A stretch of 64,000 bases of DNA from Butyricimonas sp. (GCA_019423345.1 JAHZBN010000007.1:46911-110910), one strand, 5' to 3'. Counted from the stretch's first letter, positions 16,682-44,363 are shown. The notes: generated by a model not told the origin, from the letters alone. Numbers and translations: made by a program.

Positions 16682-16863
16682 TAGGCGAAAGATACATATA
16701 AAATGAGGATCGTTTCAGGGTTTGTCAAAAAGCGGTCCTCTTTTTAAATTTTTTGCCTGCTTGCAGAGAATGTTTGGCCTTTTGTTTTCCGGTTTTGTTT
16801 GCAAATATCAATAATCACTACAACCGCCGGGGCTGATTTTACGAGGTGTAAAATCAATAATCT

Positions 16864-17265
16864 ATGGAAAACAAAAAGACCAATACTTTGATACATTTGA
16901 ACGGCCTCCGTTATGGTGAGGGACATATATTTCTTTGGTGGGAGAATTATTGGCGGCGGCTTTTGTACGTTGACATTCTTTACATTGAGGGATCGGGCAG
17001 TTATTGTGAATTTCACGCGATCGACGGGAGTCGGATGACGATTTCTTATCGTTTGGGGGTGATGAAACACTCGTTACCGGACGACACGTTTATCCGGATA
17101 CACCAGAGTTTCATCTTGAACTGGCGTTACATCGATACATTTGTGGGCAATAGCGTGAAAATCGGTGACCGATGGTTTCCGGTAGGTCGGACTTATCGTC
17201 CCCACCTGCTGCAAGTGTTGCATTTCCCGAAACTTCCCCTGCAAAATAGTAAACAAGAGTTATAA
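16864..17265 (+). CDS. stand-alone LytTR-domain DNA-binding protein (no receiver domain)
   Basis: 133 aa. LytTR pattern ILYIEGSGSYCEFHAIDGSRMTISYRLGVMKHSLPDDTFIRIHQSFILNWRYI. Confidence 0.75.
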   Translation: MENKKTNTLIHLNGLRYGEGHIFLWWENYWRRLLYVDILYIEGSGSYCEFHAIDGSRMTISYRLGVMKHSLPDDTFIRIHQSFILNWRYIDTFVGNSVKIGDRWFPVGRTYRPHLLQVLHFPKLPLQNSKQEL

Positions 17266-17329: not shown

Positions 17330-17640
17330 TATGTAATATGTCAATCACGGCTATAAGAGGGTAATAGATTTTTTTAGTCGCCAGAAACATGAAAAAAATG
17401 GGAGTTCCCTTAGATATGATAGTTTTAAACACAAGGCTAACAGGGGAAGAGATAGAACGGTTGTAACTTCAACGTGTAGAGAGATTGTGATCGCTAATTT
17501 TCTCATGCCATGTTTCAAAAATTCTCTCTCGGCTTTTATTTCTAGCGGAATGATATGTTGTTGATCTTGTAAAATATAATCGATTTTGGCATGACTGTTT
17601 TTACTTTCTTGTAACCAGTAGTTCAGTTGACGTTTGTAAT
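17330..17640 (-). pseudogene. remnant of the C-terminus of a DUF4143-type AAA ATPase gene
   Basis: The minus strand reads YKRQLNYWLQESKNSHAKIDYILQDQQHIIPLEIKAERE…. A stop lies 3 codons upstream. The expected tail (…IYYPLIAV) is in another frame (ORF 17193..17432). Confidence 0.35.
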
Positions 17641-17969
17641 TTTTTTATTCCTCAAGTTAATTTGCATTGAATCCAAGGTTGTCGATACTTGTTGTATTTA
17701 TTATACTAAATACCCGAACATCTTTCGTTGCGTGCAGGGTGTTCTTAGGGATTAAACACGTATCACTTTCGAATCAAAGACGTTTCAAAGACGTTCAGAA
17801 GTGTCTTTGATTCGGGAGAGAAAGGCTGTTGTTGCCTGTTTGTTGGAGATGCTTGTTGGTGATTCTTCGTTTTATTACATGAATTGTTTTGGGGACTTTT
17901 GTTGGAGCGGGTCCCTGTTTTTATGAATGAGAGAAATGTGGGACTTATCCTGAATATGTAGTGAAAAAT

Positions 17970-18001
17970 GTCGTTTGTGAAAAGATTCGGTCGTTTGTGA
18001 A
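17970..18001 (+). promoter_or_regulatory. exact 12-bp direct repeat gtcgtttgtgaa x2, 20 bp start-to-start (candidate LytTR-type binding site)
   Basis: Copies at 17970-17981 and 17990-18001, immediately upstream of a TAnnTTTG box. Confidence 0.4.
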
Positions 18002-18030
18002 TTAGAATTTTATACGGGGAATGCATGCCC

Positions 18031-18038
18031 TACCTTTG
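18031..18038 (+). promoter_or_regulatory. Bacteroidota -7 promoter box (TAnnTTTG)
   Basis: tacctttg, 39 nt upstream of the ATG at 18077. Confidence 0.4.
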
Positions 18039-18076
18039 CTTCAGAAAACAAAGAAAATTTTAAATATAAACGAGCG

Positions 18077-18700
18077 ATGGCAATAGTAGACGAAAATATT
18101 CGAGGAAAGATCGGGAATTCGGTTTTCTACCGGGTCGGGGTTGTAACACGGGTGAGGAGTGCGGCAACGAGTTACACGGATGCGAATACGACAAAACAAC
18201 AGGAAAGCCGTTCCCGTTTGAGGGTGGCGATACGTTTTTACCGACGTTTGGTGGAGATCGGGTTACAGGAGGCGTGGTATCTGGCGGCTAAAGGAACCGG
18301 AAAAAGTGGGTACAATTTCTTTTTGAAATTAAACATGATGGTTTTTAAGCCTAACGGGAAGATTGGAGATTTTGCCCGATTGCAGTTGACGATTGGAATG
18401 TTGCAGAAGGTAAATCATCTCATGGCACGTGTTGACGGGGAAGATACGGTTTCCTTGTCATGGGAGAAGGCAGAGTATCTTCCTTCAGCGGGGGCAGGGG
18501 ATGAGTTGGTGGTTGTCGTGCTTTATGCCGATCGTTCGTTTTCTCCGGAATTTGTTAAGACTAACGGGGAGACAAGAGGTGACGAGGAAGCCACTTTTCG
18601 TTTACAACGTAAACGGGGGACGGCGGCTCACTTGTACTGTTTCTTCCGGGGAAAGAACGGGGAAGCGTATTCTCCGAGCCAATATCTTGGGGTTTCATGA
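18077..18700 (+). CDS. unknown-function protein, paralogue A (resembles what I recall as the DUF6266 family)
   Basis: 207 aa. Shares blocks with the 20048 product: IRGKIGNSV / LLGKARKSV, TTKQQESRSRLRVAIRFYRRL / TPEVLAQRARMKALVQLSRQL, and C-terminal LYCFFRGKNGEAYSPSQ / LYCFATLKNGKGASDSQ. Confidence 0.5.
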   Translation: MAIVDENIRGKIGNSVFYRVGVVTRVRSAATSYTDANTTKQQESRSRLRVAIRFYRRLVEIGLQEAWYLAAKGTGKSGYNFFLKLNMMVFKPNGKIGDFARLQLTIGMLQKVNHLMARVDGEDTVSLSWEKAEYLPSAGAGDELVVVVLYADRSFSPEFVKTNGETRGDEEATFRLQRKRGTAAHLYCFFRGKNGEAYSPSQYLGVS

Positions 18701-18914
18701 TTTTAGATTTACGATTGGGTGATTAAGGTATTTCCGAATAGAAGATTACTTTATAAACCTTATAGATTAATAGAAGACGAGGCGTTTAATTGTTCCTGAC
18801 GTGTCGTTACGGGGGAGACTTGGGTGAGGGTAAAAGGGAACAGGTAATTTTAATACAGAGAAATATGGCAAAAAGAGAGACAAGTAAAAGAGAAGAAATG
18901 ACAGAGGTGAAGAA

Positions 18915-19313
18915 TTGTATCGTTACGGCTTTACGGCTTTGGAAGGAGTGAAAGGTGTGGTCGGGGCGGTTGGCAAGGTGATTGACCGCCTGACACTCCC
19001 GGCGAGGGAGAAGCGGCAATTGGAAGCGGAATTATTGGAATTGCTGGTTGAACACGAGAAGGAGATGGCCCGATCCCGCTCGACAGTGGTGGTGGAAGAG
19101 GCCCGGGGAAACTGGTTGCAGCGATCATGGAGGCCGTTGGTGATGTTGGTGTTTGCGTTGATCGTTCTCGTGGGAACGTTCACGACGTTGCCTATCCTTT
19201 CCGATACTTCTCGTTTTTGGGATTTATTGGAAATCGGCTTGGGTGGTTACGTGGTCGGACGGGGTGGAGAAAAAATGGCCGCAGCCATTTTTAGGTTAAA
19301 AGCTAAAAAGTAA
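18915..19313 (+). CDS. 3TM-type holin (the 'holin of 3TMs, for gene-transfer release' family)
   Basis: 132 aa (TTG start in track; exact start uncertain). Has GVVGAVGKVIDRL…EKRQLEAELLEL…GNWLQRSWRPLVMLVFALIVLVGTF, typical of this holin family. Confidence 0.65.
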   Translation: MYRYGFTALEGVKGVVGAVGKVIDRLTLPAREKRQLEAELLELLVEHEKEMARSRSTVVVEEARGNWLQRSWRPLVMLVFALIVLVGTFTTLPILSDTSRFWDLLEIGLGGYVVGRGGEKMAAAIFRLKAKK

Positions 19314-19353
19314 AAGTTAAAAACTTGGTTAACTAAATTTTTTATTTATGGCA

Positions 19354-19382
19354 TTTTCAATTTTCAATTCTTCATTTTCAAT
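19354..19382 (+). repeat. ttttcaa-type heptamer repeat tract
   Basis: ttttcaattttcaattcttcattttcaat. Translates to the artefactual FSIFNSSFSI at the head of track ORF 19348. Confidence 0.7.
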
Positions 19383-19398
19383 CGTGAACCATCGCTTG

Positions 19399-19956
19399 AT
19401 GGGAGACAGGGTGGTTCACTTGGTGAGCGCAAAGAATACCCGGCGTTTGGAGGGGCCGGACATGATCGTGTTACATTACACGGCGGGAACGAGTGCTGAA
19501 AGTTCTGCACTTTTCCTGACTCGTCCTGACGTGTCGGCTTCGGCTCATCTGGTGATTGGGCGGGATGGGGAGGTGTTTCAACTGGTGCCTTTCAACATTG
19601 AGGCATGGCACGCTGGGAAAAGTTGGTATGCCGGACGTGGCGGGTTGAATCATTATTCGATCGGAATAGAGCTGGATAACTTGGGGAAACTCCGCTTCTC
19701 GGGTGATTTGTTTATCGCGGAGTGTGGGCGTGTGGTGCCGCTTGATGAGGTTTACACGGATTGTTCCGGTGATAGCCCGACATACTGGCATCGCTACACG
19801 GCAAGACAGATCCGGGTGTTACGGGAAATCTGTACTCTACTGGAAGAGAACTACCCGATTCGTGACGTGGTGGGACACTCGCTAATCACGCCGAGAAAGA
19901 TCGATCCGGGCCCGGCGTTGGAATTCGCATTTAGCGAATTTCAAGATAAAAATTAA
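19399..19956 (+). CDS. N-acetylmuramoyl-L-alanine amidase (Amidase_2 / AmpD-PGRP type)
   Basis: MIVLHYTAGTS…ASAHLVIGRDGEVFQLVP…AWHAGKS…SIGIELDNLG…VVGHSLITPRKIDPGP. The ATG at 19399 avoids the repeat-encoded extension (alternative start 19348). Confidence 0.85.
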   Translation: MGDRVVHLVSAKNTRRLEGPDMIVLHYTAGTSAESSALFLTRPDVSASAHLVIGRDGEVFQLVPFNIEAWHAGKSWYAGRGGLNHYSIGIELDNLGKLRFSGDLFIAECGRVVPLDEVYTDCSGDSPTYWHRYTARQIRVLREICTLLEENYPIRDVVGHSLITPRKIDPGPALEFAFSEFQDKN

Positions 19957-20015
19957 AAGTTAGAAACTAAAAATATACCTTCTTGGGGCAGGGCCCGCCC
20001 CGGGAGTGTAGAGTT

Positions 20016-20047: not shown

Positions 20048-20677
20048 ATGGCAGAATTTAATTCGTATTTATTAGGAAAAGCAAGGAAATCAGTAGGTAA
20101 CATCACATTGTGTTACACGAGAGGGAAAAACATTGCCAAGGCGAAGGTATTTTCTCGAAAGGATAACCCGACGCCGGAGGTACTGGCACAGCGGGCAAGG
20201 ATGAAAGCGTTAGTGCAATTATCCCGACAGTTGTTGCCGGTGATCCGGAAAGGTTTTGTCGGAATCGGCAAAGGCTCGGCGGCAAACGCTTTCACCTCGG
20301 TGAATATGTCTCGGGTTTCGGTGGACGAGCGGAATGTGGCAACCGTGGATTTTGACCGCTTACTTTGTGCTTCTGGAATGTTGTATCCACCGAAGGTGGA
20401 AGTGACTTACTCGGAAGAGAACAAGATGTATTCTTTCGTGCAAGAAATGCAGGACGAGGAGAACGGCTACGCTTTCAATGATGACGTGGTGTACGCCATG
20501 TTATACGAAACGGTACTTGGTCGTGCCCGTTTGGTAACGTTACGAGCTCGTGGCGAGAACGGTAACACTACTTATGCTCTCCCAGAGGAGTGGAGTAACG
20601 AGAATGTGAAACTATATTGTTTTGCCACGTTGAAGAACGGGAAGGGAGCTTCGGATAGCCAAGTGATGACGTTGTAA
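20048..20677 (+). CDS. unknown-function protein, paralogue B of the 18077 product
   Basis: 209 aa. Same block structure as the 18077 product (see there). Confidence 0.5.
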   Translation: MAEFNSYLLGKARKSVGNITLCYTRGKNIAKAKVFSRKDNPTPEVLAQRARMKALVQLSRQLLPVIRKGFVGIGKGSAANAFTSVNMSRVSVDERNVATVDFDRLLCASGMLYPPKVEVTYSEENKMYSFVQEMQDEENGYAFNDDVVYAMLYETVLGRARLVTLRARGENGNTTYALPEEWSNENVKLYCFATLKNGKGASDSQVMTL

Positions 20678-21051
20678 GCTGTGATTTGCGATTTTGAATT
20701 CGAGGATTCAAGAGTTTCAATGATCGAGTGATTTTAACGAGGATGAAGTTTCATGTTTCCGGTATGGAATTCCTGCCGGAGGCATGAGACTCATCGTTAT
20801 CGCAGATGGCGGATAACTTGTTGACGGGAGTTTTTTTAGTATTATTGGTGGAGTGATCAGTTCCCTTGCCGTGACTTGGGTGAAGCGATGGTAGGAGAGA
20901 AGGAGATAAGATGCTTGGGGGTAAAATTCGTTTTAAAACCTAAACGAGTTAAAATTTAACATTGTTAAATGTAATTTTTCCCCATTTTTTGAAGTAAAAA
21001 TGGATAGGTAAACATGATATATATAAAAGTGGATAAAAATTACGAAAAGAT

Positions 21052-22200
21052 ATGATAAGGAAGAACAAAATAAACATAGAAAGCGAAGATTGGGAAATGG
21101 CTGAAAGGGCGATAAAGCAGTCGGGGACGGTGAAAGAGAAGCTTACTAGCCAAGAGATTGGGAAAGAAACATTTTCGGGTAAAGTTGAAGAGTGGGTTGA
21201 GGCAGTTCATGGGGTTTCGAAAATAGATAAGAAAAAAGCAGTTGAAAAGATGTTGGCCGAGTTAAAGAAGCGAGATCGGAAAAAGAGGGCGGTTCGTGTG
21301 TGGTGGACAGCGGGAGGATCGGTGGCTGCGGCAATACTTGTGTTCTTTACCTTGACACAGTGGTTACAATGGGGAAAAGAGACATCGGACGAGGAGAAGA
21401 TTACGACTGTCGCTTTGACCGAGATAAAGGTACCGACTTTGATCACGATGGAGAGAGAACATGGTGTATTATCTCAAGAAATATTAGATCTGAAGAAAGC
21501 AAAAGAGGGATACCGTGTAAAGGGATCGGGAAAAAAGGAAGAAACGGATGTTGATACGAGTGAGCCGATTCGTTATAATCGAGTTGTAATTCCCGCGGGT
21601 TTCACTTATAAAGTAAGACTTGCCGATGGGTCTGTCGTGACGTTAAATGCTGGTAGTGAACTGAAGTTCCCGGAGGAGTTTCGAGATTCATTACGTGAGG
21701 TGGAGTTTACGGGAGAGGCATATTTTGAGGTGGAGAAATCAGATAAGCCTTTTATCGTGAAGGCCGGAGATTCACGAGTACAGGTTTATGGGACACGTTT
21801 CAATTTATTTTATAGTGAGAAACTTGCTTTGGCCGAGGCTGTTTTGGTTGAAGGAAGTATAGGTATGACGGCGAATGGTAAAGAAACTAAGATTATTCCC
21901 CATCAACGGGTATGGTATTCCATGAAGGATTCATTGATGCGTACTGAAAATGTCGATCCGGCAGATTACTTGACTTGGTTGGGTAATAGTTTTAAATATA
22001 ATAGGACCAGATTGGATAAAATTGTTTTTGATATAGCTCAATGGTACGGGGTAGAAATCAAGATTGCTCCGGGCTTGGAGAAACAGGCATATAGCTTGGA
22101 GTTTGATCGATCAGCCACTATTGATTGGGTGGTGCGTGCTTTAGGACTGATTATTGACAAACCGATTAAAACAGAGGGAGGTGCATATTATATAGAGTAA
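21052..22200 (+). CDS. FecR-family anti-sigma factor
   Basis: 382 aa. TM segment WWTAGGSVAAAILVFFTL. Motifs RLADGSVVTLNAGSELKFPE, EVEFTGEAYFEV, VYGTRFNL. Paralogue of 722..1753. Confidence 0.85.
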   Translation: MIRKNKINIESEDWEMAERAIKQSGTVKEKLTSQEIGKETFSGKVEEWVEAVHGVSKIDKKKAVEKMLAELKKRDRKKRAVRVWWTAGGSVAAAILVFFTLTQWLQWGKETSDEEKITTVALTEIKVPTLITMEREHGVLSQEILDLKKAKEGYRVKGSGKKEETDVDTSEPIRYNRVVIPAGFTYKVRLADGSVVTLNAGSELKFPEEFRDSLREVEFTGEAYFEVEKSDKPFIVKAGDSRVQVYGTRFNLFYSEKLALAEAVLVEGSIGMTANGKETKIIPHQRVWYSMKDSLMRTENVDPADYLTWLGNSFKYNRTRLDKIVFDIAQWYGVEIKIAPGLEKQAYSLEFDRSATIDWVVRALGLIIDKPIKTEGGAYYIE

Positions 22201-44149: not shown

Positions 44150-44345
44150 TGCCAGCTTCACTTCCCGAAAGCTACATAAACAGTTACGTCTTGGCAGGTT
44201 TTCTGACTTGTTTCCTTTTCGTCGCCTTCCCATCCATGTACAGACAGTGGCAGTAGAGACTAAAGTTTCGAAACTTACAGCTGCGGGTACAGTTCCCGAC
44301 TCTCACGGGATTCCCTCGTAATGTCACGAAGAACATTACCTCTCC
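44150..44345 (-). promoter_or_regulatory. cobalamin (B12) riboswitch, with no recognisable downstream CDS
   Basis: The minus strand reads GAGGGAAUCCCGUGAGAGUCGGGAACUGUACCCGCAGCUGUAAG … CUGCCACUG … GAUGGGAAGGCGAC … AAGUCAGAAAACCUGCCAAG (B12 box at 44193-44208). Confidence 0.85.
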
Positions 44346-44355
44346 AATACGTTTA

Positions 44356-44363
44356 CAAACATA
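44356..44363 (-). promoter_or_regulatory. -7 promoter box driving the riboswitch
   Basis: The minus strand reads tatgtttg, about 10-15 nt upstream of the first aptamer helix. Confidence 0.45.

Follow-up and report, generated by a model that had tools for sequence, protein, structure and literature searches.

The window, by which we mean the whole 64-kb stretch of Butyricimonas DNA that was analysed, carries on its plus strand a small cluster comprising DUF6266a, the remnant of a helix-turn-helix gene, a holin, an amidase and DUF6266b, preceded by a promoter of the Bacteroidota type, a pair of exact direct repeats and, further upstream, a gene for a protein with a LytTR domain (Table 1). The closest loci are those of B. 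virosa (95% protein identity) and Ca. B. faecavium (93%). The LytTR protein consists of the LytTR domain only, matching PF04397 over residues 35-118 with 40 bits (cut-off 22.6, E=4.6e-10), and in the PDB it matches the LytTR domain 3d6w (E=1e-4), with AgrA weakly matched. The structural model of DUF6266a (pLDDT 85, pTM 0.76) has an N-terminal three-stranded sheet with three helices and a C-terminal FN3-like beta-sandwich. Comparison of this model with the PDB and with viral predicted structures returned generic FN3 domains only and no informative match, and DUF6266a was rejected as its own DNA-binding regulator, the model being without a match to a DNA-binding fold. A search of the literature on DUF6266, and on LytTR proteins with holins in Bacteroidota, found nothing relevant.

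In relatives, the gene between DUF6266a and the holin encodes a 99-aa MerR/excisionase-like helix-turn-helix protein, here called HTH99. It is internally deleted in the window and, in the same way, in three B. virosa-like loci (L001, L020 and L021), and the full gene is present in L002 and other relatives. The original prediction regarded the LytTR gene as the only DNA-binding gene nearby; this is correct for the present strain, because its HTH99 has been internally deleted, and does not extend to the relatives, in which HTH99 lies inside the operon. The holin and the amidase are the only proteins of the cluster that match phage-lysis families in PHROG, and a phage origin of the cluster was rejected, with no relatives of DUF6266 in IMG/VR and no PHROG match for DUF6266. 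Between the amidase gene and DUF6266b there is a GC-rich hairpin, GGGGCAGGGCCCGCCCC (19985-20005), which may be a terminator or an attenuator, and DUF6266b is perhaps expressed separately; because this terminator-like hairpin intervenes, transcription through to DUF6266b is uncertain.

Table 1. Features of the locus, in window coordinates.
Feature	Position	Strand	Remarks
LytTR DNA-binding protein	16864..17265	+	133 aa, receiver-less; PF04397; candidate reader of the repeats
Conserved upstream module	17770..17815	+	3-4 tandem 11-mers (CAAAGACGTTT, CAAAGACGTT) and hairpin, stem CGAATCAAAGAC / GTCTTTGATTCG
Degenerate distal third repeat	17949..17960	+	21 nt upstream of repeat 1; CCTGAATATGTA in the window, GTCGAATATGTA in close relatives
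Direct repeat 1	17970..17981	+	GTCGTTTGTGAA; TTTGTGAA invariant across 14 diverged sequences
Direct repeat 2	17990..18001	+	GTCGTTTGTGAA; ends 29 nt before the -7 box
-33 element position	18008..18011	+	19 nt before the -7 box; inferred via the spacing rule in Table 3 of PMC6193735
Bacteroidota-type -7 box	18031..18038	+	TACCTTTG; kept in all related promoters
Invariant leader block	18041..18053	+	TCAGAAAACAAAG; longest invariant run beside the box (footprint alignment)
DUF6266a	18077..18700	+	PF19781; first gene after the promoter
HTH99 remnant	18866..18952	+	28 codons, MAKRETSKREEMTEVKNCIVTALRLWKE; in-frame internal deletion removed ~71 codons
Three-TM holin	18915..19313	+	GTA_holin_3TM; PHROG 3427, holin
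N-acetylmuramoyl-L-alanine amidase	19348..19956	+	Amidase_2; PHROG amidase/endolysin families
DUF6266b	20048..20677	+	Distantly paralogous to DUF6266a (22% identity); closes the cluster

The two copies of GTCGTTTGTGAA are exact and 20 nt apart from start to start, and the region reads, in order, AAAAAT, GTCGTTTGTGAA, AAGATTCG, GTCGTTTGTGAA, TTAGAATTTTATACGGGGAATGCATGCCC and TACCTTTG, the last of which conforms to TAnnTTTG and is separated by 38 nt from the start codon of DUF6266a. The exact 12-bp repeats at 17970 and 17990, the box at 18031-18038 and the ATG at 18077 are all as first described. With the G of the box placed at about -5, an assumption that carries the established geometry of Bacteroides promoters over to this site, repeat 1 lies at about -73/-62 and repeat 2 at about -53/-42, in agreement with the earlier placement of the repeats at roughly -40 to -75. 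The TTTG expected some 19 nt upstream of the -7 box appears as TTTT in the window and as TTG or GTTG in relatives. The -33 element of the window is weak because TTTT replaces TTTG, and this poor -33 is read as a weak, activator-dependent element. The transcript should start within the invariant leader block downstream of the box, the predicted position being about 18043.

For exact direct repeats of at least 12 nt with offsets of 13-30, the expectation in 64 kb of Markov-1 random sequence is 0.075; six were observed in the window, of which the other five belong to coding sequence or to a simple tandem of 7-mers. When up to two mismatches were allowed, no further copies of GTCGTTTGTGAA were found near the repeats, and two weak matches elsewhere in the window are within chance. 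The TAnnTTTG box alone is not significant (36 occurrences on the plus strand of the window, 35.9 expected); the one at 18031-18038 is the sole box on this strand between 17137 and 21500, and its distance to the repeats is fixed in relatives. Some further candidate elements were discarded. A small ORF (17801-17926, 41 aa), considered as a leader peptide, has its frame broken by a 1-nt indel in the closest relative, L001. The 800-nt intergenic region contains no Rfam family at gathering thresholds, and at permissive E-values only a chance miRNA match on the hairpin. A scan for sigma-70 promoters and terminators, which is not applicable to Bacteroidota, gave counts at the level of shuffled sequence.

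About 100 loci with homologues of DUF6266a (42-99% identity) were collected and annotated with family HMMs built from the first loci. Group A (at least 57% identity) has the full cluster, with the LytTR gene 0.4-2.7 kb upstream; among the 35 loci of this group for which sufficient sequence before DUF6266a was available, 33 have it. Group B (50-53%) consists of stand-alone DUF6266a genes, with the lysis genes absent and no regulator gene nearby, and in group C (42-46%) the cluster is present and a LytTR gene is absent within 6 kb. Group B, formed by L011 and L067-L083, adjoins pentose-phosphate genes, and L011 also has a divergent ECF sigma/FecR/SusC trio; one member of the group B protein cluster is annotated as Butyricimonas virosa, the species of L001. 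The synteny was seen only within Butyricimonas-like genomes, and a search for homologues of LytTR gave 22 matches only, on short contigs, with no more distant contexts gained.

The 800-nt gap between LytTR and DUF6266a in the window holds what remains of a minus-strand DUF4143 ATPase gene (17520-17650, an AAA_14/DUF4143 C-terminus with a weak Pfam match, E=7e-4), and at this spot relatives have a SLFN/AlbA ATPase, a PDDEXK_2 nuclease or a SMEK/MC6/DUF2326 island. Since relatives hold different inserted genes there, the gap between LytTR and the promoter is an insertion hot spot, and the distance from LytTR to the repeats varies with insertions of 0.4-2.7 kb.

In about 90 related Butyricimonas-type loci, DUF6266a is preceded by two or three direct repeats with a phasing of 20-22 nt, and in every lineage (groups A, B and C1) 28-30 nt separate the end of the proximal repeat from the -7 box. 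Among 28 non-redundant upstream regions, 10-mers recur at 8/10 match with an offset of 20 in 13, of 21 in 5 and of 22 in 7, these offsets exceeding by far all others as well as the shuffles, which gave about 1.2 on average and 6 at most. A scan with a matrix derived from the repeats, for pairs at 19-22 nt spacing, over 657 kb of loci and the 64-kb window (about 720 kb), found them at this position and on this strand only, confined to -92 to -130 before DUF6266a start codons, and gave 0 pairs in shuffled windows. The same scan located the distal third repeat also in L022-L027, L030, L042, L052 and L094. In a diverged region of 370 nt compared across 14 diverged sequences, the conserved islands are the repeat cores, the -7 box, the 13-nt leader TCAGAAAACAAAG and the upstream hairpin module; the footprint shows conservation of TTTGTGAA in repeat 1, of the greater part of repeat 2 and of CGAATATG in the distal repeat. 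Group B promoters have three full copies (e.g. GTCGTTTGTGTA-N9-GTTGTTTGTGAG-N8-GTCGTTTATGAA), and the repeats of group C1 read ATTGTCACGTTT / ATTGTCACACAA. Even at only 45-50% protein identity the architecture and geometry of the repeats are preserved, whereas the stretches between the elements have diverged.

On the basis of these comparisons, the repeats appear to be a genuine, conserved operator of the activator type. The proposal of LytTR-type repeats is borne out, in that a conserved cis-element with the length, phasing and position typical of LytTR sites is present. Its description as belonging to a lysis-cassette promoter needs correction, the first gene being DUF6266a and the same repeat-promoter module also driving stand-alone DUF6266a genes without holin or amidase.

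The repeat sequence has diverged among lineages into about seven types, namely GTyGTTTGTGAA (type a), GTCGTTTTTAAA (a'), GGyGTTGGTGAG (b), GyGTCTGTGTCA (c), the L007 type (d), TCGGAAAGGAA (e) and ATTGTCAC (C1), which pair one-to-one with LytTR types that are mutually only 29-45% identical (protein identities for this co-variation were computed on MAFFT alignments). Mosaic loci are informative in this respect. L055 and L016 are 87% identical in DUF6266a and 96% in HTH99, but only 29% in LytTR, and their repeats are unrelated (TCGGAAAGGAA vs GGTGTTGGTGAG); DNA homology between these two loci begins exactly at the start codon of DUF6266a. L016 shares its repeat type with L009, with LytTR proteins 88% identical and HTH99 proteins 42% identical, and differs in its repeats from L005, with LytTR at 34% and HTH99 at 98% identity. 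L059, L007 and L048 have HTH99 proteins 93-99% identical, yet present three repeat types. From these comparisons it follows that the repeat type goes with the LytTR gene, and not with HTH99 or DUF6266a, and the mosaic loci whose homology starts at the DUF6266a ATG, as in the pairs L055/L016, L016/L005 and L059/L048, indicate recombination between cassettes. The phylogeny of HTH99, holin and amidase differs from that of DUF6266a and LytTR.

Because repeat and LytTR types co-vary one-to-one across the mosaic loci, LytTR is the best candidate for the reader of the repeats, and the protein encoded at 16864 keeps the role of candidate regulator that it had been given at the outset. LytTR and the repeats are physically linked and lie on the same side of the breakpoint, so their co-variation perhaps reflects mere inheritance as one recombination block. 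The type a motif is also found before the stand-alone DUF6266a of group B, and in assembly ODME01 a full type c locus with LytTR (L062) and a stand-alone DUF6266a (L061) share a TGTGTCA-type motif. A motif shared by two loci is in keeping with a lineage-specific factor that acts in trans on two or more targets.

In our assessment, binding and activation by LytTR are the best explanation of the repeats and a rather probable one, because length, spacing and position match those of published LytTR operators. Binding, activation over repression, the transcription start, the operon extent and the signal controlling LytTR are parts of a scheme that we infer from the DNA, as follows. The two exact repeats and the degenerate third copy would be the operator of an activator-dependent Bacteroidota promoter, to which the receiver-less LytTR protein would bind with one repeat per LytTR domain, the bound proteins lying on one DNA face because the repeats are phased two helical turns apart. 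Placed beside the weak -33, on a repeat 2 that ends 29 nt before the -7, the bound protein would help RNA polymerase to start at about 18043, giving a transcript of DUF6266a and then, probably, the HTH remnant, the three-TM holin, the amidase and DUF6266b. An unlinked stand-alone DUF6266a that has three copies of the motif is probably turned on by this LytTR protein as well.

In 13 lineages, the 260 nt upstream of the LytTR gene contain neither a matrix pair nor any single site that exceeds background, which sets this gene apart from most LytTR systems and counts against LytTR as the reader; autoregulation of LytTR via the same repeats was rejected. As regards a membrane partner, no conserved membrane-protein gene adjoins LytTR, whose flanking genes vary by lineage; in L016 and L018 it is located directly after TldD/PmbA or thioredoxin genes. 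Immediately before the LytTR ATG there is a conserved leader (16815-16863, CCGCCGGGGCTGATTTTACGAGGTGTAAAATCAATAATCT), recognisable across LytTR types of 30-40% identity, which may be a translational or transcriptional control element.

A wider proposal, which we put forward tentatively and with more doubt than confidence, is that LytTR together with the operator-promoter makes up a portable specificity cassette that diverges fast. At least seven cognate protein/repeat types would be exchanged by recombination at the DUF6266a start codon, ahead of a DUF6266-holin-amidase module that is otherwise conserved, and each cassette would govern the unlinked DUF6266a paralogue too. On this view, a domesticated lysis/release programme of gut Bacteroidales would be under a one-component switch that is receiver-less and strain-specific, with the 11-mer array and its hairpin as a second control element. 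The exchangeable LytTR/operator cassettes are, in our view, the most interesting aspect of the system.

Other readings of the repeats have to be weighed against activation by LytTR. They may be a real activator site that is read by a regulator encoded elsewhere, for instance of the AraC/XylS or response-regulator type, with LytTR as a mere syntenic neighbour, which we consider unlikely. Direct repeats phased at 20-21 bp and abutting the -35 are also typical of AraC/XylS activators, group C1 and the stand-alone DUF6266a loci (group B and L061) have repeats built in this way but lack a LytTR gene within 6 kb, and variable insertions separate LytTR from the repeats. Nevertheless, close loci (HTH99 96-98%, DUF6266a 87%) have unrelated repeats and the linked LytTR changes with them, so that an unlinked factor would need to alter its specificity in step with the local swap, which seems the less economical reading. 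In addition, each unit, in which 12 nt form a single conserved block and some 8 nt vary, suits one LytTR domain better than a bipartite AraC site, and no gene of the AraC/XylS or response-regulator type was found near any locus. If LytTR is the protein that binds, it might do so as a repressor or an architectural protein instead of an activator: the sign of regulation is not fixed by sequence, and AlgR, a LytTR protein, also represses (PMC4064291). We hold this to be improbable, as sites that lie wholly upstream of the -33, at a fixed distance and with a poor -33, have the layout of an activator-dependent LytTR promoter.

HTH99, which is present in the operons of groups A and C1, could also read the repeats, in a positive or negative autoregulation like that of BldC or Xis on head-to-tail direct repeats, given the ability of small MerR-like proteins to occupy direct repeats in multimeric form (PMC5859096). 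This is very improbable, since near-identical HTH99 proteins are found with different repeats (L016/L005, 98%; L059/L007/L048, 93-99%), the repeat type of L016 and L009 is shared despite 42% HTH99 identity, the gene is deleted in the window, L001, L020 and L021, yet repeats and operon genes are intact there, and group B promoters have the repeats and no HTH99 gene. HTH99 was rejected as the reader of the 11-mer array as well, the type of neither element tracking that of HTH99. The exactness of both copies could also suggest a recent local duplication, or chance, without any function, but the retention of architecture and geometry to 45-50% protein identity while the intervening sequence diverges, together with the low expectation per window given above, makes this hardly conceivable.

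LytTR proteins bind sites of 8-13 bp that form a pair of imperfect direct repeats with about 12 bp between them, for which the exact spacing is critical (PMC4064291), and in LytTR regulatory systems (LRS) 9-bp repeats with spacers of 11-13 bp are found 4-11 bp upstream of the -35 (PMC6193735). In the Bacteroides examples, repeats and spacer are each 11 bp long, and a further 11 bp lie between the repeats and the downstream TGTA-19-TATCTTTG (PMC6193735). The operator in the window, a 12-bp repeat with an 8-bp spacer, can equally be described as a 9-bp core and a spacer of 11 bp, and its proximal repeat lies 6-7 nt before the inferred -33 position; it has the marks of a LytTR operator, with at least two repeats of 8-13 bp, a period of 20-22 bp and a distance of 4-11 bp from the -35/-33. 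The LytTR consensus is [TA][AC][CA]GTTN[AG][TG]. CGTTTGT agrees with it at 7/9 positions, and several lineage variants keep (C/T)GTT, whereas types d and e (GGAAA-type) do not.

HdrRM/BrsRM of S. mutans and the LRS-like operons of Bacteroides thetaiotaomicron and B. ovatus have, as here, a small receiver-less LytTR regulator (PMC6193735). Also as here, their paired direct repeats lie a few bp upstream of the -35/-33, those of Bacteroides before a TAnnTTTG promoter, and the targets of the S. mutans LRS include bacteriocin and cell-death functions (PMC6193735). In the LRS of Zou et al., however, a membrane inhibitor is co-transcribed, whereas no conserved membrane-inhibitor gene is found beside the present LytTR, and the autoregulatory repeats of LRS precede their own operon, whereas here the operator precedes a neighbouring operon and an unlinked gene. 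The up to three repeats seen here are a further difference, and the LRS-like regulators of Bacteroides have transmembrane segments, which the LytTR protein of the window lacks. The locus is not a classical LytTR regulatory system, membrane partner and self-regulation site both being absent.

In the LytSR-lrgAB and cidABC systems of Firmicutes, a LytTR regulator is tied to holin-type and murein-hydrolase functions. The present locus differs from these in having a phage-type 3-TM holin and an Amidase_2 endolysin-like enzyme, and in that DUF6266a comes first among the targets and is the most constant of them. VirR boxes share the 12+8 layout of the repeats in the window, with 12-bp units set 8 bp apart. 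The sites of AgrA, ComE, PlnC/D and VirR resemble those described here as direct repeats of 8-13 bp, about 12 bp apart and abutting the promoter (PMC4064291), but these regulators have a phospho-receiver and a cognate kinase, neither of which LytTR has here, and they differ from the present system, with its -33/-7 promoter and Bacteroidota host. For AlgR of Pseudomonas aeruginosa, the 9-mer core is CCGTTCGTC and the algD-RB3 site is CCGTTTGTC (PMC4064291). The repeat sequence TCGTTTGTG matches at 7/9 positions and contains CGTTTGT, which is present in algD-RB3, and the resemblance to AlgR half-sites pointed out in the original prediction holds. AlgR sites are, however, usually single, scattered and far upstream or downstream, and not paired at 12-bp spacing (PMC4064291).

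Judging from sequence comparisons, the operator and LytTR most likely constitute a previously uncharacterised switch of gut-bacterial lysis genes, of a familiar kind. If LytTR reads the repeats, a defined regulator, operator and target set would be available for a chromosomal holin-amidase module that lies outside prophages and is common within a human gut bacterial genus, and DUF6266 would gain its first functional handle. It would also mean that a LytTR regulator is workable without a receiver domain or a membrane partner. LytTR domains are poorly understood compared with helix-turn-helix proteins, and the locus would provide a natural series of diverged LytTR/operator pairs, usable for the study of LytTR sequence specificity. 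Should the link to LytTR fail, the geometry of repeats and promoter would still mark a dedicated activator site.

In the conserved module upstream of the repeats, the last 11-mer copy pairs with an inverted copy, forming in the window a perfect stem of 12 bp. The module is also present in L003, L007, L009, L011, L018, L047, L055, L061, L067 and L073, and its hairpin has compensatory changes between lineages, with double changes in 8 of the 14 predicted pairs. In groups A and B it occurs together with the repeat-promoter, being located upstream in most loci and in the 5' leader in those of the L018 and L055 type. The sequence type of the 11-mers follows neither HTH99 nor the A/B pairing, and whether the module belongs to the switch is uncertain.

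In L009 and L007, an ECF sigma gene is found between DUF6266b and FecR/SusC. No sigma gene is present in the corresponding part of the window (20678-21051), before FecR (21052-22200), and tblastn with the L009 sigma protein gave no match in the 64 kb. The left end of the window contains, at 189-290, four copies of AAAGTTCGGAGAG in the 3' part of an ORF that enters from the left, an unrelated coding repeat, and a cobalamin riboswitch (RF00174, 91.9 bits) is located on the minus strand at 44176-44358.
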